This document shows positions 3,429-50,451 of a stretch of DNA of 50,451 bases, piece after piece. Location: positions 1 through 50,451 of IMG/VR virus record IMGVR_UViG_3300043418_000062. The stretch is one strand, 5' to 3'. Source of the stretch: a virus (lineage: Duplodnaviria; Caudoviricetes). The notes under the pieces are model-generated. The model had not been told where the DNA came from. It saw only the letters and a program-made list of their open reading frames with translations, and ran no database searches. A program made the position numbers and the translations under genes. Every line of letters starts with the position of its first letter. Position 1 is the stretch's first letter.

Positions 3429-3526
3429 TATTCTGTAAAGACTGCCACCATAAGCACTCACCATTCATAACCAGAATAAGTTTCTGTATAAGTTGTGGCT
3501 CAAACAACTTGACAAGCAAGCAATAA
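3425..3526 (+). CDS. 33-aa zinc-ribbon micro-protein (CKDC...CISC)
   Basis: Translated by hand; ATGA overlap. Confidence 0.55.
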   Translation: MIFCKDCHHKHSPFITRISFCISCGSNNLTSKQ

Positions 3527-3537
3527 CCTGCTATAAT
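3509..3537 (+). promoter_or_regulatory. Sigma-A-type early promoter
   Basis: TTGACA-17 nt-TATAAT, extended -10. Confidence 0.85.
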
Positions 3538-3580
3538 ATAAACATAACAAGACACACACACCAAACAAAGGATAACCAAA

Positions 3581-4126
3581 ATGCTAAAGCCAGACCTAAT
3601 GCTACAAGTTGATGACAGCAACCGTATTAGCGCTTATTACGACCAATATGGATATGCTTACGAGGATTTTGTAGGCGACACTATGGGAGTTTATACGCTA
3701 CGAATGGCACGCTTTATGGGCGATATCAAAGGTGGCGAACTAACCGAAGACCTAGACCGACTGACACGCAACACGAGCAACTGGCAACACGAGAGCGCAA
3801 TCGGTAAATACCTAGCAATCTCCGGTAAGCACTATCGCAAGATAACCCTACAAGGCTATTCACAAGGCGACTGGGCAGAAGTGTTTATCTATTCAGATGA
3901 TGACTGGGTGCTAGACAAAGACAGCGACAGCACACTTCAGGCGTGGTTCAAAGGCGATATCTTCACCGTTCACCACGAGCGACTAGAGACCTACACGAGC
4001 AACACCGACCCAAGCAACACAATCTCTCAATGGGAGACCGTAGACAGCCTAAGCGCCTGTATTGTCGAGAGCGAAGAAGACCTTGAGGCATATGTTTCAG
4101 ACTTCAACTTGACAATCGCTAAATAA
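3581..4126 (+). CDS. Early hypothetical protein (GYSQGDW motif)
   Basis: ORF behind promoter and RBS. Confidence 0.8.
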   Translation: MLKPDLMLQVDDSNRISAYYDQYGYAYEDFVGDTMGVYTLRMARFMGDIKGGELTEDLDRLTRNTSNWQHESAIGKYLAISGKHYRKITLQGYSQGDWAEVFIYSDDDWVLDKDSDSTLQAWFKGDIFTVHHERLETYTSNTDPSNTISQWETVDSLSACIVESEEDLEAYVSDFNLTIAK

Positions 4127-4137
4127 CCTGCTATAAT
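4109..4137 (+). promoter_or_regulatory. Sigma-A-type early promoter
   Basis: TTGACA-17 nt-TATAAT, extended -10. Confidence 0.85.
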
Positions 4138-4172
4138 CAACTCATAACAAACAAACACACAAGGAGACTACA

Positions 4173-5404: not shown

Positions 5405-5730
5405 TGACAAGCGAGTATGATATCCAATTCCTATTCGACTGGCACTACGGCGACGCTGTGCCAGTATGCCGAGCCTTTCACCTATGGCTAGATGTAGACG
5501 GACAATTCAACACCGATAACGACACTATTGTAGACCGCTACGAATTCACGCAGGAAGATATTGACTGGATTGTAGCCGAGAATGGATACGCAGATATCAG
5601 CGAACTAGAAGTAGACGAATGGTATACCTCAAGCGAGTGGCTGGAACACGCAGGTATGCCAAACGGGTTCAAGAATTGGGTTCGCAACCTTCCAGAATAT
5701 CAACCGTATCAGGAACTTGACATTCACTAA
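5404..5730 (+). CDS. Acidic hypothetical protein
   Basis: Coupled ORF. Confidence 0.75.
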   Translation: MTSEYDIQFLFDWHYGDAVPVCRAFHLWLDVDGQFNTDNDTIVDRYEFTQEDIDWIVAENGYADISELEVDEWYTSSEWLEHAGMPNGFKNWVRNLPEYQPYQELDIH

Positions 5731-5745
5731 CTATTGTGCTATAAT
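5717..5745 (+). promoter_or_regulatory. Sigma-A-type early promoter
   Basis: TTGACA-17 nt-TATAAT, extended -10. Confidence 0.85.
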
Positions 5746-5787
5746 ACTATTACACACACAGCAACACACTAACAAAGGAGAAATATT

Positions 5788-10977: not shown

Positions 10978-11171
10978 GTAAACCTGATTGGGCTGAACGC
11001 TTACAGAGGACATTTAAACGTAAGTATCAGCAAGGTTATCAAGATGGCTGGAACGAGGCTACACAAGCCTACAAAGGCTATTTAGTAATGACACCAGCAC
11101 TACTCGAAGACTACAAGCGACAGGCTCGCAAGGAGGAATATGACAGACTACAAATTCAAAAAGAAACCTAG
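10974..11171 (+). CDS. Hypothetical protein
   Basis: Coupled ORF. Confidence 0.6.
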   Translation: MSKPDWAERLQRTFKRKYQQGYQDGWNEATQAYKGYLVMTPALLEDYKRQARKEEYDRLQIQKET

Positions 11172-11628
11172 AGGCACACACTGCTCTAAGGGTCACGAAT
11201 TCACAGATGACAACACATTCATCCGAGCATATGACAACGCTCGTGTATGTCGTGAGTGTCGCAAGCAGTATGCTAGAGAGAAGTATCAGCGCAACAAGGA
11301 TAAGAACGGTGGAGTTGCTCGACCTCGCAAGGATAAAATCCAGATGTTTGAGCTATCCGAATCTATACCAGTGCTTGACAAAGCAGAGAAAGCGTGGTAT
11401 GATTTACAGGCAGGACTTGCAGAAAACAAGACACCTTGCCTTGGTAAAGCAGAAGATTACGCTGACTATTCATCATTCAAGTCTGCTGATGAAGCAGAAG
11501 AGATGTGTTATGGATGTCCACTAATCAAGCAGTGCTACGACTTCGCTGTGCTTAATGAAGTCAATGCTGGTATCTGGGGAGGAATTGTTATGGATGAGGG
11601 AGGAAGTGTTTTATTTGACGTTATCTGA
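11140..11628 (+). CDS. whiB: WhiB-like Fe-S transcription factor fused to an N-terminal Cys/His zinc-binding module
   Basis: C-x22-CxxC-x5-C plus GIWGG; N-terminal THCSKGH...NT...CRECR. Confidence 0.8.
   Translation: MTDYKFKKKPRGTHCSKGHEFTDDNTFIRAYDNARVCRECRKQYAREKYQRNKDKNGGVARPRKDKIQMFELSESIPVLDKAEKAWYDLQAGLAENKTPCLGKAEDYADYSSFKSADEAEEMCYGCPLIKQCYDFAVLNEVNAGIWGGIVMDEGGSVLFDVI
11375..11403 (+). promoter_or_regulatory. Internal sigma-A-type promoter
   Basis: TTGACA-17 nt-TATGAT with TG extension. Confidence 0.65.
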
Positions 11629-12340: not shown

Positions 12341-12369
12341 TTGACTACAAGAATCATATGTGTTATAAT
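12341..12369 (+). promoter_or_regulatory. Sigma-A-type promoter with upstream CGACACGCC motif
   Basis: TTGACT-17 nt-TATAAT, TG extension; CGACACGCC at 12317-12325. Confidence 0.8.
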
Positions 12370-12401
12370 ATCTACTCAACAACAATTCTTTAGGAGGAAT
12401 A

Positions 12402-13130
12402 ATGAGTTCAGAATTTCCCGAACTAGCATTTGCTCAGTTCATTCACAAGGCAGAAGCCTTGAACGCACCGAAGAGCATCTTGCTTTACGGTGACGCAGGT
12501 CGAGGTAAGACTTGGCTTGCAGCATCAATCTCAGCAGTCGAGGAATACAATCCTGTACTACTAATTGACGTAGAGGGTGGCGCATCAGCTATCGCTCGTG
12601 ACTGGAAGAACGTAGACGTAATTAACATTACGACCCACGAGCAGTTCCAGTCTGTGATGGATGGTTTGCTAAACACTCCGCACAAGTACAAGACGGTAAT
12701 CATTGACACAATCGGTGTTGTGATGGACCGAGCAGAGAAGTTCTTTGGTGAGAAGCCGGAGAACAAGAGTAACAAGTTTGGTCGCTGGGGCGACCTAAAG
12801 AACTGGGCTAACGAGGTCTTCCGAGCGTTGCACACTGCATCGTTCGTAAGCATCCTGCTTGCCCACGCTCTTGATGACAAGGATGAAAACACTGGCGCAG
12901 TAAAGACAACAGCCATGCTTCCAGGTTCATTCAAGAGCACACTCCCTTCAATTCCAGACATCGTTGGATATCTTGGTGTAGAAAACACTGAAGAAGGTCC
13001 ACAGCGAGTTCTGGTCGTTGGACAGTCTGACCGATTGGTAACCAAGAACCGCTTTGGTTTGCCACCGAAGATTTACCAGCCAACCATGAAGGGCATCATC
13101 GACACTATCAATCAAGGAGGTAACAAATAA
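12402..13130 (+). CDS. AAA_24 / Sak4-like ssDNA-annealing ATPase
   Basis: YGDAGRGKT Walker A, IDVEGG, VIIDT, KNRFGLP; adjacent to nuclease and SSB. Confidence 0.85.
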   Translation: MSSEFPELAFAQFIHKAEALNAPKSILLYGDAGRGKTWLAASISAVEEYNPVLLIDVEGGASAIARDWKNVDVINITTHEQFQSVMDGLLNTPHKYKTVIIDTIGVVMDRAEKFFGEKPENKSNKFGRWGDLKNWANEVFRALHTASFVSILLAHALDDKDENTGAVKTTAMLPGSFKSTLPSIPDIVGYLGVENTEEGPQRVLVVGQSDRLVTKNRFGLPPKIYQPTMKGIIDTINQGGNK

Positions 13131-13615
13131 TGAGCAACATTCAGTTCAACATTTCACAGGAGGCGCTAGACGCTTCAGCATCATCAGACTACACCCCGAT
13201 TCCAGAGGGTAGCTACAACGCTACAATCTTTGAAATCAAGCAGGAGTTCGTGAAGTCTGGTCCAAACGAGGGTAAGCCTCGCTTTAACATCCAGTTCCGC
13301 CTATCAGATGCACCATACGCTAACCGTCGTGTATTTGGTTACGTTGCGTTGTATGCAGCAGGTGACTTCTGGAAGACCAAGGCGTTCTTCTCTGCTCTTG
13401 GTATCGACATGGCAGCTGGTACATTCACTGTGCCAGACGCTCAAGACCTACTAGGCAAGCCAATCGGTGTGCGTGTCAAGGTGGGGAAAGACCAGAACGG
13501 CGCTGACCGCAATGAGGTAGCAGGCTTTGATAAAGCCACCTCAGGCAGTGCCGCTGACGCAGTGATGGCATCGGTGGGCGCAACTCCGGTTGCCTCGTCA
13601 GGTAACGTCTGGTAA
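13130..13615 (+). CDS. Single-stranded DNA-binding protein (DUF669-like)
   Basis: YTPIPEGSYNATI...DLLGKPIGVRV...RNEVAGF pattern. Confidence 0.75.
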   Translation: MSNIQFNISQEALDASASSDYTPIPEGSYNATIFEIKQEFVKSGPNEGKPRFNIQFRLSDAPYANRRVFGYVALYAAGDFWKTKAFFSALGIDMAAGTFTVPDAQDLLGKPIGVRVKVGKDQNGADRNEVAGFDKATSGSAADAVMASVGATPVASSGNVW

Positions 13616-13629
13616 AAGTCCCAATGGGC

Positions 13630-13659
13630 AGTCCTGAGACATGACTTAAAACTGTCTCA
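13630..13659 (+). ncRNA. Small H-type pseudoknot motif, copy 3
   Basis: AGTC-CT-GAGAC-AT-GACT-TAAAACT-GTCTC. Confidence 0.65.
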
Positions 13660-13662
13660 CAA

Positions 13663-13737
13663 GCCCCTACTGGAGTTACACGCTTTTCTCTCTCCTCCTT
13701 TGTGTGTGTAGTCTGAGTTCGATTCTCAGCCGGGGCA
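13663..13737 (+). ncRNA. tRNA-like RNA with an anti-SD pyrimidine loop in place of the anticodon
   Basis: GCCCC/GGGGC-A acceptor; CTGAG-TTCGATT-CTCAG T arm; TACACGC/GTGTGTA stem with a 20-nt loop containing CTCCTCCTTT. Confidence 0.6.
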
Positions 13738-13772
13738 CGTTGTGGCAAAGCATGGTGTGTTATAATTATAAT

Positions 13773-14198
13773 ATGAGAAATGAATATTATAAAACATATA
13801 TGAAGAACCGCAGACTACAGCGAAGAACAATGCTTTTAGAGTTATCTGGTAATAAATGTTCAGTGTGTAGTTCTAGTGATAATCTAGAATTTAACCATAT
13901 TGATAGAGCTAGTAAATTATTTGTTCTTAGCGGTAAGGGTTTAGATAAAAAAATAAATGACATTCTACTTGAGCACAAAAAGTGTGAGCTACTATGCTCA
14001 AAATGCCATCTAGATAAAACTAGACATCAATATGCAACAAAGCAAATCAAAATCTGGAACGATAGAAAAGATGAGCCATATCTTCATGGTACAGCTCGTA
14101 ACTACCATGAAAATGCTTGTAGATGTGCTGATTGTAAATATGCAAAAAAATTATATAGAAATAAAGAAGTAGATTTATGGACTCAGGTTTATAAATAA
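13773..14198 (+). CDS. HNH homing endonuclease (AT-rich, probably leaderless)
   Basis: CSVC...LEFNHID...CELLCSKCH; C-terminal HGT..Y...CRCADC; TGT-TATAAT 6 nt before the ATG. Confidence 0.85.
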   Translation: MRNEYYKTYMKNRRLQRRTMLLELSGNKCSVCSSSDNLEFNHIDRASKLFVLSGKGLDKKINDILLEHKKCELLCSKCHLDKTRHQYATKQIKIWNDRKDEPYLHGTARNYHENACRCADCKYAKKLYRNKEVDLWTQVYK

Positions 14199-14204
14199 AC
14201 TCAT

Positions 14205-14279
14205 TCCTGAATAGCAATCTAGGCGAGTGCGCCGAGCTGTTAACTCGGAGATAGGTTGGTTCGAATCCAACTTCAGGAG
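14205..14279 (+). tRNA. tRNA-Asn (GTT)
   Basis: TCCTGAA/TTCAGGA acceptor; CCGAG-CTGTTAA-CTCGG anticodon arm; TTCGAAT T loop. Confidence 0.9.
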
Positions 14280-14651
14280 CAAGGGCAAGCCATGTCCCCT
14301 TAGCCTATCAACTTGTTGTATAGGTAATCATGGCAAAGGGATAGGCAGACCAGCCGGCTTTAGGTCTGAGGGGAAACAACCCCCGTCTGATTCCCATCAA
14401 GGGCTGAACTGCTTGAGCATCGTCAAGATAGCAGTGAGATGGTTTCCGTATGGTTGCCAAGGGTGCAATTCCTTATCAGCCCACAAACGGTATTGCTGCT
14501 CAATAGGTTCGCTAGAGCCTAACGATTACGGATACCGGACCTGTAACCCATTGCTGCGGCAGGTTACGGGTTACCCGCCTCTGGGCGCATGTCTGCGGTT
14601 CGTCACTGTTCAGCACCCCGTAAGGGCATAAGCCATGCGCCCAGAGTGCAC
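14280..14651 (+). ncRNA. Structured non-coding cassette between the two tRNAs
   Basis: Successive long stems, a possible pseudoknot and a tRNA-like element; no credible ORF. Confidence 0.55.
14401..14483 (+). ncRNA. tRNA-like element with non-canonical D and anticodon region
   Basis: GGGCTGA/TCAGCCC-A 7-bp acceptor; T-arm-like AGGG-TGCAATT-CCTT. Confidence 0.55.
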
Positions 14652-14724
14652 GCCACCTTAGCTCCAATGGTAGAGCGCCGCCTTTGTAACGCGGATGTTA
14701 TCGGTTCGAGTCCGATAGGTGGCT
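14652..14724 (+). tRNA. tRNA-Thr (TGT)
   Basis: GCCACCT/AGGTGGC acceptor; GCTC/GAGC D stem; TTTGTAA anticodon loop; TTCGAGT T loop. Confidence 0.9.
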
Positions 14725-14754
14725 CGGAGAGATACTAATAACGAAGGAGGATAT

Positions 14755-16956
14755 ATGAAGACCAGCGACTTTCTAAGCGCTATTTATGGAGATGCCAAAG
14801 GTCTGGCAACCATCGTCACACGAGGTGCAAGCGGTGAGCTAACAGAGCAACAGTTCTATAACTACCCTGACCAGCGTGATGCTATGGTAAGCCACGTCAT
14901 TCAGCACCAGTCTGAAGACGTTTACTTTTCACCTATCCTATTCAATGCACCACGTCGCATCAAAGAGAACGCAAAGACCGTTCACGTTATCTATGCTGAT
15001 GCTGACTTCTGTGCTCCAGAAAACTTCCTCGTGGAACCATCCATCTCTGTGCAAACCTCTGAAGGTCGTTGGCACACTTACTGGATGCTAGACTCCGAGG
15101 TTGACCCACAGGTTGCAGCACTCCTCTCAAAGAAGATTGCATATGCACACTCGCACCAAGGTTGCGATAAGTCTGGATGGAATACCACAAAACTACTCCG
15201 TATTCCTAACACGATGAATCGCAAGCAGGGGGTAGATTACGCTATCACAGCAACAACGTCTGGCGCAATCTACTCCCTCGACGACCTGCTGCTTCACTAT
15301 GAAGACGTAAAAGTCGAGCCTATTCGTGAGTTGTCGCTAGAGCCACTACCTGAGCAATGGCCATCTGTCATGGATGTCATGGCTAAGATTCAGAGCAATC
15401 CTGAGATTATTGGATTGTACATGGACCAGCCATCGCTTAGTGCAGACCTATCTGTGCTTCTTTGGAAACTTGAGATGCTGCTATTCAAGCAGGGCCTCAC
15501 AGCTGAAGAAGTCTTTGTAATCGCTCGTAATGCCAAGTGCAACAAATACCACTCACCACTTCGCCCGAAGCGTCTAGACGCAGATGGCGACCTGTGGCGT
15601 GAGGTTCAGCGAGCAGCTGCATCTTATGGTCAGGAGCCAGCCGGAACTTCACTTGTTCCAATTGACCTGACCGACATTACTTCTACCGAAACATTCACTA
15701 AGCCAAAGTTCCTAACGGACTCTGAACGCCTAACAGTGTTAGAGCACAGAAACTTTATCGACGAATATCGAGACTGGGCTATGTCGAAGACCGATGGTGC
15801 AATTGCGTACCAGAACGCTTCAGCATGGACTCTACTATCTTGCGTGTTCTCAGATATCGGTTACGCTGTGCCTAAGTTCGGTAAGATGGGCCTGAACCTT
15901 TGGTTCATGGTCCTTGGTGAAACAACCCTGACTCGTAAGTCAACTTCCAGAAACCTCATGTTGCGTGCTGTGCGCCAGTATGAGAAGTTCTCTGGATACC
16001 AGATTGACATTGGTTCAGATGCTACACCAGAAGGCTTGACCGCAATCCTCGGAGAGCGTGACAAGCAGACATCACTCCTTCATCGAGATGAGGTCCAGGG
16101 TATGTTTAAGGACTTCATTAACAAGACCTATATGGCATCAGCAGCTGAACGCTTTACTGAGTTGTATGATGGTCACGTTCCTGTGACGATTCGTTCGTCT
16201 AAGGGCAAGACACAGACGGAGCGAGCCGAAACTAACTTTATTATGTATCTAATGGGTATCACCAGCAAGACTGCTGACGTGCTAACCACTGAATACTTCC
16301 GAAGCGGTTTCTTGGCACGTTTCATTTATGTTACAGCACCTACTCCACCTCGCACCAAGGAATCAGAAGATATCCAACAGGCTGACGAGTATGAAGTAGT
16401 TGTTCGTGACGAAGTTCTTGAGAAGATGATGAAGGACTTGTCAGATAGCGTTATGTTCTGGCAGAAGAAGGGTGGGCCGAGTCCTCGACCTGTTCGACTA
16501 AGCCAGCGAGCGCTAGAGCGCTTCAATCAGTACAAATGGGAAATGGGTAACTGGGCCGAGAATCATCCTGAAAAGGAATCTATCGAGCCATCACGCCAGC
16601 GTCTATCACTGTCTGTTTGGAAGTGTGCAGTTCTACTTGCTATGTTCGAGAAGTCAGAAGAGGTACAGGAGCGTCACTTGCTGACAGCTATTATGTACTC
16701 TGAAGACTGGTTCTGGAACCTAGTTCAGATGGCTGGAGCAATCTCAGCGTCTGAATGGCAACGTGACGTTGACCGTCTTGAAGCGTTTATCGTGGAGAAG
16801 GGTGGTCGTGTTCGTTACGAGGAGTGCTACAAGAAGTTCAGCAACAAGCGTAAGCGTGAGTTTGACGAGATGGTGGAAGCACTAAACTCTCAGGCTCGTG
16901 TGCACGAAGTAACAGAAAATCAGAAGCGTTATTTGGAGGTGGTTTCAAATGGATAG
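14755..16956 (+). CDS. RepB-like primase fused to a C-terminal P-loop/helicase-like (DUF3987-like) domain
   Basis: YFSP, YADAD, TSEGRWHTYW, LLRIPNTMNRK; C-terminal GETTLTRKST, RDEVQG, SGFLARF; start MKTSD after AAGGAGG. Confidence 0.8.
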   Translation: MKTSDFLSAIYGDAKGLATIVTRGASGELTEQQFYNYPDQRDAMVSHVIQHQSEDVYFSPILFNAPRRIKENAKTVHVIYADADFCAPENFLVEPSISVQTSEGRWHTYWMLDSEVDPQVAALLSKKIAYAHSHQGCDKSGWNTTKLLRIPNTMNRKQGVDYAITATTSGAIYSLDDLLLHYEDVKVEPIRELSLEPLPEQWPSVMDVMAKIQSNPEIIGLYMDQPSLSADLSVLLWKLEMLLFKQGLTAEEVFVIARNAKCNKYHSPLRPKRLDADGDLWREVQRAAASYGQEPAGTSLVPIDLTDITSTETFTKPKFLTDSERLTVLEHRNFIDEYRDWAMSKTDGAIAYQNASAWTLLSCVFSDIGYAVPKFGKMGLNLWFMVLGETTLTRKSTSRNLMLRAVRQYEKFSGYQIDIGSDATPEGLTAILGERDKQTSLLHRDEVQGMFKDFINKTYMASAAERFTELYDGHVPVTIRSSKGKTQTERAETNFIMYLMGITSKTADVLTTEYFRSGFLARFIYVTAPTPPRTKESEDIQQADEYEVVVRDEVLEKMMKDLSDSVMFWQKKGGPSPRPVRLSQRALERFNQYKWEMGNWAENHPEKESIEPSRQRLSLSVWKCAVLLAMFEKSEEVQERHLLTAIMYSEDWFWNLVQMAGAISASEWQRDVDRLEAFIVEKGGRVRYEECYKKFSNKRKREFDEMVEALNSQARVHEVTENQKRYLEVVSNG

Positions 16957-38289: not shown

Positions 38290-38424
38290 CTATCTTATCT
38301 CAACGATATCTGTAATCTGTTGACCACATGGTCCACAGATACAGAGTTCCGCTGGGTCCTCGAATGGGATTGCAATGCCGTTATTCTCACAGCCACTTGT
38401 GTGGCAAGTTAGGTTTTTAATCAT
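38290..38424 (-). CDS. 44-aa Cys-rich fibre-associated protein (CHTSGCEN...CGPCGQQI)
   Basis: Translated by hand; TAATG coupling to the collagen fibre gene. Confidence 0.65.
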   Translation of the reverse strand: MIKNLTCHTSGCENNGIAIPFEDPAELCICGPCGQQITDIVEIR

Positions 38425-40664
38425 TATCCTGCTGCTGCTCCTGATGTCATTTGAATTGCGGTCCAGTTAGCTGTACGACCAACGTTTCCTCCTGCTGTGC
38501 CAGCCCAAGCGTAGACAGTAAAACCTGATGCTGTAACGCTACCAACTGTTGCAGATGTTGAAGTGGCAGACGAAACCAGCGTTGCTGTAACAATTGGTGC
38601 AACGCTAAATCGTGAAGCTGGAAAAGTAACAGATGCGCTTGCTGTAACAGAAACAGAGCCAGCTGCCATAGAATAAGCAGTATTTGTTGCAACTGCTTTT
38701 CTTAGAAAGGTGACATCCCTAGTTGTGCCATCAATAGATAATACTACGTTATTACCTGAATCAAATATTCTTAGCGATGGTGAAACAGTTGAGCCAAAAG
38801 CATCAATACTCCACGCTATAGTATTATCTACTGCTCTAGCAAGTCCCAGCTGGCCTCCCTCCTCTATAGAATCTGTACGACTAATTTTTGTATTAACGTT
38901 AGATGCAGCATCCGTAAGGCCGTATCCAGCAATAGTAGTTGGCTTGGCTGTCAAGTCAGCAAATGCATGAGTGTGGTTACCTAAAGCAACAGTAGTGCCG
39001 CTTGTACCAGTAGGAACACGTGCAATGTCCAGCGTGCCAGAAGTAACATCTGCAGCTGCGTGAGTGTGTGAAGCAGCCGCATAAACACCAGTATGTAAAT
39101 GGTTACCCAGTGCAACAGTAGTGCTAGTTGTTCCAGTTGGAATTCTAGCGATATTAAAAATACCCGATGTAGTATCAGCTGCTGCATGAGTGTGTGATGC
39201 TGCTGCATAGGTTCCATTGTGATTGTGATTACCAAGCGCAACTGTTGTTCCAGTTGTGCCAGTTGGAATACGAGCAATATCTAGGGTTCCAGATGTGATA
39301 TCAGCAGACGAGTGGGTGTGACCAACCGCTGAAATGCCAGCCTCGGCAAGCGTCTTGTTTTCCCATAGGTTAGAGGCTGTGCGTTGAATAACCTCACCAG
39401 TTGCAGGAGCATCAATCTTCACGTCGTGTAGTTCATCTAGCTCAAAACCGTTTTGTGGTTTAACAAAGATTTCACCATTATTAGCATTTACACGAGTTAC
39501 AACACCAATGTACACAAGGTGGTCAGGTGCAGATGGTTTAGTAGTTGAGCCGCCATAGTGCCAAAAGATAAGGTTACCATTAGTTCCAAGCCATACCGCA
39601 TCGCCAACTGTTGCTGTAGAGGTGTCCAAGCCAGCAAGCAAGCCCTCGGTTATAACATTAACCTTAGCATTAGTTGACCCACCATTTTCAAGTAGACCCA
39701 TAGTCTTAGACGATGTTGCTTCAGCTGCATTAGATGCCTTGGAGACAATCATGTTTGTGCCATCAGCAGATGAGACGTATACAGCTTGCCCCTTAGCAAT
39801 TGCATCGCCAAGTTTTACTTCATGCTTAATAGTTGAGGTGTAAGATGCAGCTGGAGCTACATTTGTCCAATAGGTATTGTAGTCTGTGCCATCAACCTTT
39901 GTTAAAATCTGGCCAGCGGTTCCACCGGCTGCAATGCCAGGTCCAGCAGGGCCGGTGGCTCCGGTAGCTCCCTGGATTCCTTGTGGGCCAGTTGCACCTG
40001 TTGCACCTGTTGCACCAGTAGACCCTTGAGGGCCAACAAGAGAGTCAAGCCATTCAGCTTCTGTACCGGTGAATCCATCTAGCTGTGCAATCTGATAAGC
40101 AGATAAACCAGTTAAGCCTTGGTCGCCTTTTGACCCAGTAGCGCCAGTAGAGCCAGTTGGACCAGTAGCACCCATAGGACCTTCAGGACCTGTCGGACCT
40201 GTAGCACCATCAGCACCGGCTGGGCCAGTGAGCCCAGTTGCGCCCTGAGGACCAGTTTCTCCCTGCGGTCCCATAAGACCAGTCTCACCTTGGATACCCT
40301 GAGGCCCCTGAGGTCCTGTTGCACCAGTCTCTCCTTGAATACCCTGTATTCCCTGCGAACCCTGAGGTCCAGTATCGCCTGTAGGGCCAGTTTCTCCCTG
40401 TAGACCTTGTGGTCCCATTGGGCCAGTTTCGCCTTGAATTCCTTGAGGCCCTTGTGAGCCTGTTTCTCCCTGTGCACCTTGTTCTCCTTGAATACCTTGA
40501 GGGCCTTGTGGTCCAGCTGGCCCCTGCGTTCCGGTGCCAGAATCTGAGCCACCACCGCCGCCGCCGATTGGTCGCTTATCTAGTTTCTTAATTTCCTTCT
40601 CAACCTTCTGAGTCCAATCCTGGGACTGGGGAGGGAGATTTGTGTCAGGGAAGTAGATTGTCAT
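38424..40664 (-). CDS. Collagen-like fibre protein with His-rich repeats
   Basis: Long Gly-X-Y tract; three HTH..AD.TSG...[16 protein letters not shown] repeats; likely start MTIYF at 40664. Confidence 0.85.
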
Positions 40665-40701
40665 AATACATCTATTATACCACTGATTGTCTCGAAATAC
40701 G

Positions 40702-40740
40702 AAAAACCCCTCGGAGCGATAAATGCTCAACGAGGGGTTT
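40702..40740 (-). terminator. Intrinsic terminator downstream of nrdJ and the candidate sRNA
   Basis: AAACCCCTCG...CGAGGGGTTTTT on the - strand. Confidence 0.8.
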
Positions 40741-40778
40741 CTCTAACACAACACACATAGTAAGGAGGAACTATGTGC
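40702..40778 (-). ncRNA. Candidate ~75-nt sRNA with anti-SD loop
   Basis: TATAAT at 40788-40783, then CACATAG-TTCCTCCTTA-CTATGTG hairpin, then terminator. Confidence 0.5.
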
Positions 40779-40790
40779 TTCTATTATATC

Positions 40791-42830
40791 TTACTTATTG
40801 TTCTCCACAATCAACTTGACTTCACAAGCATCTGTGGTGCAGTACGCTTCGCCAACTGCGTCAGCTGCCATACCAGCATAGACACCAGCAAAATCAATCG
40901 GAAAGAGCTGCAATGCGTATTCTTCATACTCTTCTTTTTGAATCTGTGTGTAAGGCATCTGTGGATAAACGTGGTTTCCAGATGGCAAGAACGATACAGT
41001 CTTTAGCTGACCGTCGTACATATGCAATACGGTTCCAACGTGCTTTGATTCTGTTTCTGGGTCAAATGTCACAGTCACAGATACTGAGTTATCGGACCAG
41101 TAACGCTGTGCGGTTGCAGCAAGAGCCATCTTCTCGAAGATTGATACATCACGTTCAGCACGTTTTGCACCAGCCTTGATTGGGAAGAATACAACTGAGG
41201 TGCCAGTTGGGTCTTCTGAAGCAGCCTCGACTCGATAGTTAGCCATCTTGAATAGAGGTAGCATCGGGTCAGAGTTCTTGAAGCGAATTGCACGAAGGAA
41301 GTATTCGCCACCCGGAGTCCAGTGAACACCTGGTGATTCACCTGCGAGGATTGATACAGTGCCAGATGGCTTAACTGTTGTCATCTTCACAGAAGGGCGA
41401 ACGCCTAGCCACTCAGAGTAAATCTCGTCATAGCTCTTTACTGTGTCGTAGCCTTCATCCATCCACTGCTTCAAGACTGGGATGCCATTGTTATCAGCGA
41501 AGTTAGCGATACCAGAAATAGATGTTCCGATACGGCGGTTACGCTGCATAATGGCGTTAGTCTCTTCCCAGTGAGTAGGAAGCAAAGTTACTGTCTTTGC
41601 GTAGAGGTAAGCAAACTTCAAAGTACGCTTGAAGTCCTCTAGTGACTCGTGACGGTTCAAGTAGGTTTCTACAAGGGTACACATCTCGAATGACTCTAGT
41701 GACTGCTCTGCACAAGGGTTATATCCGACTACTCGGTGGTCCTTATTGTTTGGGGCATCTTTTAGGCGACCATATTTGCGTGACTGGTCCATCCAGATAA
41801 CTCCAGGCTCACCATTGCGGATAATGCCATCAACAATAGGGCTGAAGTCAGTTCCAACTGAAACCTCTACTGAGTTGTTAGACATCCAAGCCCAGCCTGG
41901 AGCCTCTGCATCATATGAGTTACGCTCAGGGAATCGCTCTGCGTTCTTTAGGTTTAGGAAGTCCTCGTCGTCAATGCGACCGATTAGAAGCTCCGCTGAA
42001 CGGCGAACGTTACCAGCAACAACAGCAACACCAATCATGTTACCAATGTCAGCGATGTCCTTGCGAGTTAGCTGCTCACCTTCACGACCAAGGAAAATCT
42101 TGCGAATACCGTTGTGCAACTTCATCAGAGGCTCAGGACCAGAGGCAGTTCCACCAAAGGTCTTGATAGGCTCACCGTATGGGCGAACCTGGTCGTAGTT
42201 AAAGTCCCAGCTAGGCTGTCCTGGCTTTAGAAACGAGTTGATAACTGCTGCTAGTGACTCAGCCCAACCCTGACGAGTGTCAGGAATGTCGTAAGTCTGT
42301 GGAGCGCCTGGAGCGTAAATCTCAAAGCCCTTGTCTGCACCCTTGTCATCAAAGCCAACGCCAACGCCAAGCATAGATGCTTCCATAAGGAAGTTGAATG
42401 GCTTTGCTGGGTTATTCTTGGTCATCTCATTAGTTGAGACAAACGCACAGTTCTGAAGGGCTGCTGAGTTCTTCTGAACATTAACAATGTCAGTTCCCAT
42501 GACCCATAGGCCACGACCAGGTGGTGTCCACTTTAGGTCAAATAGACGACTAAAGAACTCCTTTGCCGAAGCCTGTGCTTTTGCGTCTGACCAAGGCAGT
42601 CTCTGTTGCTTCGCATAGTCCTTCTGAAGGCTGTAGGTGCCATTTGTGACACGCTCACATACATCTGCCCAAGTTTCCTTTGTTCCGTCTTCCTTGAGCC
42701 TGCTGTAGGTTCTCAGGAAGGTAATTTCACCTACCGAGTTACCGGCAACGTCGGTGTAACCGAATGGTGCCTGTTTTTTGCGATAATCGCTGACGAATTC
42801 GTCTGTGAGCTTGAATGAAAAGATGCTCAT
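40791..42830 (-). CDS. nrdJ: Class II (adenosylcobalamin-dependent) ribonucleotide reductase
   Basis: PPGRGLW, LQNCAF, GNVRRSA, NPCAEQ, TTVKPSGT, DNSVSVT; C-terminal CTTDAC. Confidence 0.95.
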   Translation of the reverse strand: MSIFSFKLTDEFVSDYRKKQAPFGYTDVAGNSVGEITFLRTYSRLKEDGTKETWADVCERVTNGTYSLQKDYAKQQRLPWSDAKAQASAKEFFSRLFDLKWTPPGRGLWVMGTDIVNVQKNSAALQNCAFVSTNEMTKNNPAKPFNFLMEASMLGVGVGFDDKGADKGFEIYAPGAPQTYDIPDTRQGWAESLAAVINSFLKPGQPSWDFNYDQVRPYGEPIKTFGGTASGPEPLMKLHNGIRKIFLGREGEQLTRKDIADIGNMIGVAVVAGNVRRSAELLIGRIDDEDFLNLKNAERFPERNSYDAEAPGWAWMSNNSVEVSVGTDFSPIVDGIIRNGEPGVIWMDQSRKYGRLKDAPNNKDHRVVGYNPCAEQSLESFEMCTLVETYLNRHESLEDFKRTLKFAYLYAKTVTLLPTHWEETNAIMQRNRRIGTSISGIANFADNNGIPVLKQWMDEGYDTVKSYDEIYSEWLGVRPSVKMTTVKPSGTVSILAGESPGVHWTPGGEYFLRAIRFKNSDPMLPLFKMANYRVEAASEDPTGTSVVFFPIKAGAKRAERDVSIFEKMALAATAQRYWSDNSVSVTVTFDPETESKHVGTVLHMYDGQLKTVSFLPSGNHVYPQMPYTQIQKEEYEEYALQLFPIDFAGVYAGMAADAVGEAYCTTDACEVKLIVENNK

Positions 42831-42892
42831 ATATCCTCCTTTAAAGGTTAGTGTTTTGTGGTTGGTCTACCATTATAACATACCCCACAGAC

Positions 42893-50324: not shown

Positions 50325-50451
50325 CAACCCAAAACAAAGGATAGAAACTAATGACAACACTACGCCAAGCCGAGCAACTACTAGCCGATTTCGAGCCATT
50401 CACAGCGGGCAACCTGTCGGCAAAATACGACATAGCCGGAAATTACATTGT
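50325..50451 (+). repeat. Terminal 127-bp direct repeat, copy 2
   Basis: Identical to 1-127. Confidence 0.95.

Follow-up and report, generated by a model that had tools for sequence, protein, structure and literature searches.

A conserved tRNA-like RNA with a Shine-Dalgarno-complementary loop between the SSB and primase genes of a phage family

The viral record IMGVR_UViG_3300043418_000062 (Duplodnaviria; Caudoviricetes), a complete 50,451-bp record with direct terminal repeats that was analysed over its whole length (the window), carries a tRNA-like element at positions 13663-13737, between the genes for a single-stranded DNA-binding protein (SSB) and a DNA primase. This element belongs to a conserved family of structured tRNA-like RNAs, supported far beyond chance: it is found at 74 loci, its helices covary strongly, and it has no match in Rfam, making it a well-defined new RNA motif. 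In the place of the anticodon arm it presents a pyrimidine-rich loop complementary to the Shine-Dalgarno (SD) sequence. As to function, we give an even chance to a reading, built on sequence comparison, in which host tRNA enzymes would excise the RNA from a Sak4-SSB-primase transcript and its loop would pair with SD-containing leaders, above all that of the primase.

Fold and family of the element

Two features define the element:

13663-13737, + strand: tRNA-like RNA, with an acceptor stem (13663-13669 with 13730-13736), discriminator A13737, GG at 13672-13673, a central stem and a T arm (13713-13729)
13684-13703, + strand: 20-nt pyrimidine loop TTTTCTCTCTCCTCCTTTGT with the anti-SD-like core CUCCUCCUUU, the CUCCU of which is kept across 47 of 47 distinct members

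The sequence reads exactly as the original prediction, made from the letters of this DNA, had it. Five pairs of an acceptor-like stem are formed by GCCCC (13663-13667) and GGGGC (13732-13736), with A13737 next, while acceptor positions 6 and 7 are mismatched in this copy (U.C and A.C), these two pairs being formed in several relatives (for example L025 and L029, with 6-7 acceptor pairs). The T arm is perfect (CTGAG / TTCGATT / CTCAG), the element sequence contains no D stem, and a central stem of 7 bp, including one G.U (13677-13683 with 13704-13710), holds the loop. RNAfold recovers the central hairpin and the acceptor stem, with a z of -1.96 on the single sequence, which mildly beats shuffles and is weak alone, and it is the relatives, not the single-sequence fold, that carry the evidence for a structure beyond chance.

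Related loci were gathered through a primase-based scan of viral contigs, resulting in 69 loci with primase identities of 60-99%. The element is present in 63 of these, the remaining six (L019, L037, L042, L061, L063, L068) having no or too little DNA upstream of the primase. The alignment set comprised 47 distinct sequences of 66-79 nt, the window copy included, which is identical to that of L003. RNAalifold places in it an acceptor helix of 5 bp, a central stem of 6 bp and a T arm of 6 bp, with compensatory changes in 16 of the 17 pairs. Standard pairs make up 95.2% of the 794 cells in the MAFFT alignment, versus 33-47% after the 3' partners are slid by 1-3 columns, and the covariation score is 0.796, versus at most 0.148 in the slid controls, the observed values being attained by none of 500 shuffles. 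On the + strand 46 cells are G.U and 3 are A.C, indicating that this is the strand that folds. Little or no variation affects the T-loop signature GTTC(G)A.TC, GG occupies positions 10-11 in 45 of the 47 sequences, the discriminator is A in 44, and pair 3-70 is C-G in 43.

With R1, a covariance model of the family, members reach 41-84 bits, whereas genuine tRNAs stay at or below 23 bits; the window copy, at 81 bits, is the sole one in the window, and each of five complete or near-complete relatives (5/5) likewise has one strong copy. When viral contigs were scanned for the motif and the 56 new loci scored with R1, 21 matches reached 44 bits or more, 10 of them in contigs already known and 11 in additional ones (L125, L130, L133, L135, L142, L144, L148, L151, L169, L170, L178), bringing the family to its present size (63 + 11). 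Where the locus reaches far enough, SSB and primase homologues flank the element here too: the former lies upstream in 10 of the 11 contigs, the latter downstream in 9 (54-69% identity). As the helices covary over primase identities of 54-99%, the fold must be under selection. In cellular genomes, a pattern scan over one genome per prokaryotic species, the pattern standing for one loop variant, gave 44 places, approximately the number expected by chance, and no R1 members. The best cellular score, 30.7 bits (L098) versus at least 41 for members, belongs to a sequence resembling a partial duplicate of a neighboring tRNA-Arg. Against deposited phage genomes, blastn and tblastn found no close relative, with only the tRNA-Thr matched and primase identities of 37% at most.

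As to membership in known classes, ARAGORN recognizes none of the copies of the element, in the window or in the 63 relatives, as a tRNA, and Rfam 15 has no match over the element or the pseudoknot preceding it, at the gathering score or at E up to 10 (13550-14800); in the window both find only a tRNA-Asn and a tRNA-Thr. Of the canonical tRNA, the element has the acceptor stem, the T stem, a T loop of the form GTTCRAnYC and the discriminator, with the T arm and five acceptor pairs covarying, and it lacks the cloverleaf with a D arm, a 5-bp anticodon stem and a 7-nt loop. Nor is it a transfer-messenger RNA (tmRNA): the ARAGORN search for these came back empty, the element is 66-79 nt long, and it has no reading frame and no G3.U70. 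It does possess what is typical of t-elements and mascRNA, an acceptor/T-arm mimic inside what appears to be a longer transcript, at a cistron boundary. The features of an SD-masking RNA are present as well, namely an accessible seed complementary to the translation initiation region (TIR) of a target and co-variation of seed and target, although the effect is small and the primase is not an exclusive target.

The loop and its partners

The loop is 13-25 nt long, its length and flanks varying among members, and it is unpaired in the consensus fold, with a longest pyrimidine run of 14 nt in the median. All 47 distinct loops contain CUCCU, 38 contain CUCCUUU, 32 contain CCUCC and 19 contain the UCCUCCUUU of the window. 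The conserved core is the complement of AGGAG, the center of the SD site; the ribosomal anti-SD has a CCUCC core. Free variation of this loop in relatives had been named beforehand as the mark of a decayed tRNA. Instead, the core is invariant and the stems around it covary.

The complementarities proposed originally are all found in the window. One is TCCTCCTTT (13693-13701), the exact complement of AAAGGAGGA at 42834-42842 on the - strand, 4 nt before the start of the class II ribonucleotide reductase gene (nrdJ). The others are AGGAGG sites at 12392, 13115, 14745 and 19805, located 4-10 nt before the starts of the Sak4, SSB, primase and dUTPase genes, respectively. Overall, AGGAGG is not enriched in the window (24 occurrences versus 19.3 expected), and it stands, properly spaced, before at least nine genes of replication and nucleotide metabolism (starts 6699, 7093, 11140, 12402, 13130, 14755, 19425, 19815, 42830).

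Across the family, the data point to one of these sites, the primase leader, as the best-supported partner of the loop, and as its primary partner in preference to a general SD decoy:

14725-14754, + strand: primase leader, 30 nt, with a 5' purine tract GGAGAGA (14726-14732) and the SD GAAGGAGGA (14742-14750)

The original prediction of a translational repressor on a tRNA scaffold is thus borne out as to the scaffold and the conserved SD-complementary loop, while general masking of SD sites is less favored than pairing with this leader. Primase leaders are purine-rich, and their complementarity to the loop of their own genome extends beyond the SD core. Examples include the loop CUUCUUCUCCUUUC and leader GAAAcGGAGAAGAAG of L047, L049 and L053, the loop UUUCUCCUUUUC and leader GAAAAGGAGAAA of L065, the loop UUUAUCUCUC and leader GAGAGAUAAA of L008, L012 and L022, and the loop UCUCCUUUCG and leader CGAAAGGAG of L130, while in L030 and L059 the loop CCUGUUUG is matched by the leader segment CAAACAGG in addition to the SD. 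In the L029, L032 and L039 lineages two CCUCC in the loop stand opposite two GGAGG in the leader, and in many leaders such a tract occurs twice, at the very 5' end as well as at the SD.

This relation was quantified over 46 distinct loop/leader pairs in 17 lineage classes, with 20000 permutations at the class level. Cognate duplexes average -15.75 kcal/mol, versus -13.86 +/- 0.53 for permuted ones, and only 6 of the 20000 permutations are as low. The cognate effect is seen separately in the 5' part of the leader (24/20000) and in its last 14 nt, the SD part (219/20000).

A number of observations weigh against pairing with the primase leader as the function of the loop. Cognate pairs gain little, some 2 kcal/mol on average, and about 6 of the 17 classes (C, D, G5, H, I, L) show no gain; part of the signal could stem from lineage base composition. 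In only 13 of the 46 distinct loci does the primase leader outrank all other sites of its own locus, showing that the complementarity is not exclusive to the primase, and exclusive targeting of the primase has been rejected on this count. In the window itself, the duplex of loop and leader, at -19.2 kcal/mol, is only the fifth-best + strand site of the genome, and the match is limited to the 8-nt SD core (GAAGGAGGA). The L013-L017/L062 lineage is devoid of the 5' tract, and in genomes of the L043 type the TIRs of Sak4 and the exonuclease (GAAAGGAGAAG...) match nearly as well. Finally, in compact relatives the complementary tract begins 2-3 nt past the discriminator, where pairing in cis would be sterically awkward if the fold is L-shaped; by analogy with tRNA geometry, this speaks for pairing between molecules or for a fold in competition with the tRNA shape, and against simple pairing in cis.

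The locus and its genomic setting

The gene order is SSB, the element, an HNH gene, tRNA-Asn, a 371-nt spacer, tRNA-Thr and primase, with the Sak4 and exonuclease genes found upstream of SSB:

12341-12369, + strand: sigma-70-like promoter before Sak4, TTGACT-17-TATAAT, 11 of 12 matches, with TG; a consensus match only
13130-13615, + strand: SSB-like gene, matching PHROG SSB families, directly upstream of the module
13623-13659, + strand: AATGGGC motif and H-type pseudoknot, S1 13630-13633 with 13643-13646, S2 13635-13641 with 13653-13659
13773-14198, + strand: HNH endonuclease gene (PHROG HNH, 1.1e-22), directly behind the element
14205-14280, + strand: tRNA-Asn (GTT), called by ARAGORN and Rfam, part of a variable array
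14652-14724, + strand: tRNA-Thr (TGT), called by ARAGORN (as 14652-14725) and Rfam, last member of the array
14755-16956, + strand: DNA primase gene (PHROG 10514, 5e-164), the conserved downstream neighbor

The promoter at 12341-12369 is the likely start of the transcript bearing the element, judging from its consensus match. From there to 17500 no other promoter or terminator consensus is recognized on the + strand, making co-transcription of the whole interval plausible.

The pseudoknot ends 3 nt before the element in the window and 3-4 nt before it in the family, usually preceded by AATGGGC. A pseudoknot of at least nine Watson-Crick pairs is formed by 35 of 38 distinct upstream sequences but by only 1 of 380 shuffled ones; S1 occurs in 17 and S2 in 14 different versions. 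The structure had originally been described as the third copy of a pseudoknot. It is real and conserved, but it has no second copy by sequence in the window with up to three mismatches, a loose structural scan of the window gives matches as numerous as in shuffles, and the AATGGGCA motif is not enriched there. The pseudoknot may serve to cap the 3' end of the SSB message after a predicted RNase P cleavage.

The interval between the element and the primase gene is variable, and it seems to be a hotspot for the insertion of tRNAs and homing endonucleases. The 99% identical relative L003 does not possess the HNH gene and matches the window at 100% up to 13738, then diverges, which identifies this gene as a recent insertion at the 3' boundary of the element. 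Other relatives have variable arrays of Asn, Thr, Trp and Gln tRNAs behind the element, which either heads such an array or, in lineages without tRNAs, stands 19-85 nt before the primase start. The leader, counted from the 3' end of the last tRNA or tRNA-like unit to the primase ATG, is at most 43 nt long in 39 of the 46 distinct loci, mostly 27-32 nt, and it is short whatever the number of intervening tRNAs. Among the exceptions, at least L008 has one more tRNA-like element, absent from the annotation, and behind it the leader is again short, at 29 nt. By analogy, this layout looks like the tRNA punctuation of an operon.

Further non-canonical tRNA-like elements, all negative with ARAGORN, are found at L029 5753-5802, L031 4950-4999, L041 ~5727-5777, L008 5061-5126 and L017 1539-1618. 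Those of L029, L031 and L041 are minimal acceptor/T-arm units without a central arm, placed right after the pseudoknot, with the anti-SD element about 80 nt further on. A minimal unit of 43 nt also occurs at L138 1240-1282, on an unrelated viral contig of 99.5 kb, behind a hairpin ending in CTCCTTTCA; it scores 32 bits with R1 and may be a distant or convergent relative of the element. The GC-rich spacer at 14281-14651, between tRNA-Asn and tRNA-Thr in the window, contains an open reading frame (ORF) without a PHROG match and has no Rfam match. Compared with mononucleotide shuffles its minimum free energy is lower by 4.1 standard deviations, parts of it are found again in L002, L009, L010, L012, L016 and L018, and it may be another structured RNA or consist of degenerate tRNA-like units.

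The runs holding the sequence are freshwater metagenomes. The ORF at 11140-11628 has a WhiB domain (Pfam PF02467, 40.7 bits versus a cut-off of 23.6), which together with the actinophage-like matches of the primase suggests an actinobacterial host for this freshwater phage family. In addition to the class II ribonucleotide reductase (40791-42830, - strand), the genome encodes a dUTPase, ThyX and a thioredoxin. A counterpart of the element had originally been placed at 40754-40777. There R1 finds no match and no tRNA-like scaffold is present, and this candidate was rejected as a homologue, being a pyrimidine run in the 3' region of nrdJ before a terminator-like hairpin. Over 40700-40777, the TTCCTCCTTAC run lies on the minus strand just past the nrdJ stop, ahead of this hairpin and its T run, while the same bases on the + strand resemble a ribosome-binding site before a 15-codon ORF.

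Elsewhere in the window, five near-consensus promoters, TTGACA-N17-TATAAT, are located at 624-656, 2263-2295, 3506-3538, 4106-4138 and 5714-5746, each followed by a shared CA-rich leader (ACATAACAA...) with a weak SD or none, so that early genes seem to use a leader type unlike that of the AGGAGG-led replication genes. Collagen-like triplet repeats (39969-40526, - strand) with a 9-nt periodicity and repeat families D1-D3 lie inside ORF 38424-40730, probably encoding a tail-fibre-like protein. An exact direct terminal repeat of 127 bp (1-127 and 50325-50451) is consistent with a complete linear genome.

Possible functions and known analogues

In the reading that we consider an even bet, the acceptor/T-arm half would mimic a tRNA inside the Sak4-SSB-primase transcript, and RNase P would cut at 13663 and the 3' tRNA nuclease after A13737, alongside the processing of the neighboring tRNAs. 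This cutting is predicted to release the SSB message with the pseudoknot at its 3' end, the element itself as a stable RNA some 75 nt long, the tRNAs, and the primase message headed by a leader of some 30 nt. The stem of 6-8 bp in the place of the anticodon arm would present the pyrimidine loop of 13-25 nt, with its invariant CUCCU core, to the purine tracts of the primase leader, that is, to the SD and, in many lineages, to the tract at the 5' end as well, and the loop would probably also pair with other strong ribosome-binding sites of the replication module. Since the tRNA-like RNA would be stable and the primase message short-lived, with one of each coming from every transcript, the former would build up, and the most likely effect would be a progressive limitation of primase translation. 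Alternatively, the same pairing could be stabilizing, with a duplex at the 5' end of the processed leader shielding the message from nucleases dependent on that end. The comparison of sequences shows conservation, structure, strand, synteny, complementarity and its lineage-specific co-variation; that the RNA is processed, that it is stable, that it pairs in vivo and which way the effect goes are inferred. Assembled contigs from freshwater runs, three of which are recorded as RNA, cannot show transcription, its absence or RNA ends: none of the listed contigs of the RNA run X4 covers approximately 13504-13789, those of the DNA run X1 are continuous, and those of X13 and X16, which stop at different points, come from relatives.

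The main alternative is that of a pure processing signal, a phage t-element, whose fold would only recruit RNase P and the 3' tRNA nuclease, separating the messages and freeing the tRNA array, while the loop would not pair with the leader but be kept for another ligand, such as ribosomal protein S1 or a phage protein. In its favor are the acceptor/T-arm mimicry, the fact that the element heads the array, the leader that stays near 30 nt and the pseudoknot lying 3-4 nt before the element, and the extra minimal units of L029, L031 and L041, which have no pyrimidine arm, suggest that punctuation alone can be a function. However, such a signal leaves unexplained both the presence of CUCCU in 47 of 47 loops and the greater complementarity of cognate, as compared with non-cognate, loops and leaders, and we regard it as unlikely to be the whole function.

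A general anti-SD decoy acting in trans, which would titrate the strong SD sites of host and phage mRNAs and shift translation to messages that are leaderless or have weak SDs, is a somewhat fainter prospect. The core of the loop is the complement of AGGAG in every member, many TIRs of the same loci match it as well as that of the primase, strong AGGAGG sites cluster before genes of replication and nucleotide metabolism, and the element is kept at a distance of up to 1 kb from the primase, with the HNH gene and tRNAs in between. Leaderless mRNAs are abundant in actinobacteria, the phylum to which the WhiB-domain ORF suggests that the host belongs. On the other hand, lineage-specific co-variation with the primase leader, its non-SD flanks included, argues for a specific partner, and a decoy working by stoichiometry would be up against ribosomes, which are abundant.

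The most far-reaching proposal combines pairing with the primase leader and wider masking of SD sites. The element would then represent a new class of phage riboregulators, tRNA-shaped, processed by tRNA enzymes, long-lived and equipped with a portable anti-SD, serving as an RNA-only timer that would silence SD-led translation, of the primase first, then of other strong-SD messages of the phage and possibly of the host, while leaderless and weak-SD messages continue. In its boldest form, the tRNA shape would dock the RNA on the small ribosomal subunit beside the SD of the mRNA. Extrapolating this far from the sequences, we hold the proposal to be improbable.

A signal acting at the level of DNA, such as a replication origin or a primase-loading hairpin folding in single-stranded DNA, is very unlikely. 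The element does adjoin the genes for SSB and primase, it includes a polypurine-polypyrimidine tract, and its stems could form in single-stranded DNA, but the T-loop consensus and the GG are features read by tRNA-specific RNA enzymes, the excess of G.U over A.C cells (46 versus 3) falls on the transcribed strand, and genuine tRNA genes follow directly in the same orientation. A tRNA in decay (a pseudogene), or one that decodes in a non-canonical way, can hardly be upheld as an explanation, despite the element's tRNA-like length (66-79 nt), its acceptor stem and T arm and its place within a tRNA cluster, given that the covariation of three helices refutes a pseudogene and reveals a fold under selection, that a loop varying from 13 to 25 nt is no anticodon, and that the D stem, any call by ARAGORN (0/63) and any match to the Rfam tRNA model at E up to 10 are all missing.

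Several known RNAs share one or another of these properties. The tRNA-like domain of tmRNA has an acceptor and a T arm, no D stem but residues resembling a D loop, and a long helix in the place of the anticodon arm. The phage element shares this architecture, but it differs in having no tag reading frame and no G3.U70, and in its total length of 66-79 nt. In plant viruses such as tymoviruses, a tRNA-like structure with pseudoknot domains upstream terminates an RNA genome at its 3' end, is aminoacylated and has an acceptor arm that is itself made by a pseudoknot. The phage element is likewise a tRNA mimic behind a pseudoknot in a viral RNA, but its acceptor is an ordinary helix, in an operon of a DNA phage. 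Among SD-masking small RNAs, RsaE/RoxS and RNAIII of the Firmicutes expose unpaired C/U-rich loops and are free-standing, with terminators of their own. The pyrimidine loop of the phage element is similarly complementary to a G-rich SD, but it is carried on a tRNA scaffold and embedded in an operon. In phage T4, RegB and RegA are proteins that act on the SD or TIR of early mRNAs, and the tRNA cluster encodes stable RNAs without a known function. The parallel, one of description only, is in a phage controlling its own early or middle genes at the ribosome-binding site, where in the present case an RNA would act.

By analogy, the nearest counterparts in logic appear to be t-elements, or mitochondrial tRNA punctuation, and MALAT1/mascRNA. 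The t-elements of plant mitochondria are described as tRNA-like structures in polycistronic transcripts, thought to define mRNA ends via tRNA-processing enzymes (PMC1920247). Like these, the phage element, with its tRNA array, lies between two cistrons and is followed by a leader of constant length; unlike these, it belongs to a phage of a bacterium and has a conserved pyrimidine loop complementary to the downstream leader, its processing being predicted. In MALAT1, the tRNA-like mascRNA lies immediately behind a stabilizing element (PMC8457004). An RNase P cut would likewise leave the upstream phage RNA ending in a structure, the pseudoknot located 3-4 nt away, but this is a pseudoknot and not a triple-helix ENE, the system is one of bacteria and phages, and the tRNA-like part has a specialized loop. 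Full-text literature searches turned up no account of an RNA of this kind, tRNA-like, from a phage and bearing an anti-SD loop, although the motif may stand among the 8495 candidate structured RNAs of a 2023 IMG/VR catalogue, which include unnamed tRNA-like ones (PMC10690425). We rate the system as a combination of a tRNA-like punctuation element and an SD-complementary regulatory loop, each of a known kind.

If pairing with the primase leader is indeed the function, then a DNA phage would be using the tRNA processing of its host twice, for punctuating an operon and for making a stable regulatory RNA that imitates the mRNA-binding sequence of the ribosome. Three themes that have so far stood apart would then meet, those of tRNA punctuation, of tRNA-like by-products (mascRNA being one) and of SD-masking small RNAs, and this would suggest why tRNA genes and homing endonucleases gather at this exact site. 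The motif comes with a testable partner, the primase leader, and offers a compact natural scaffold for an antisense loop.

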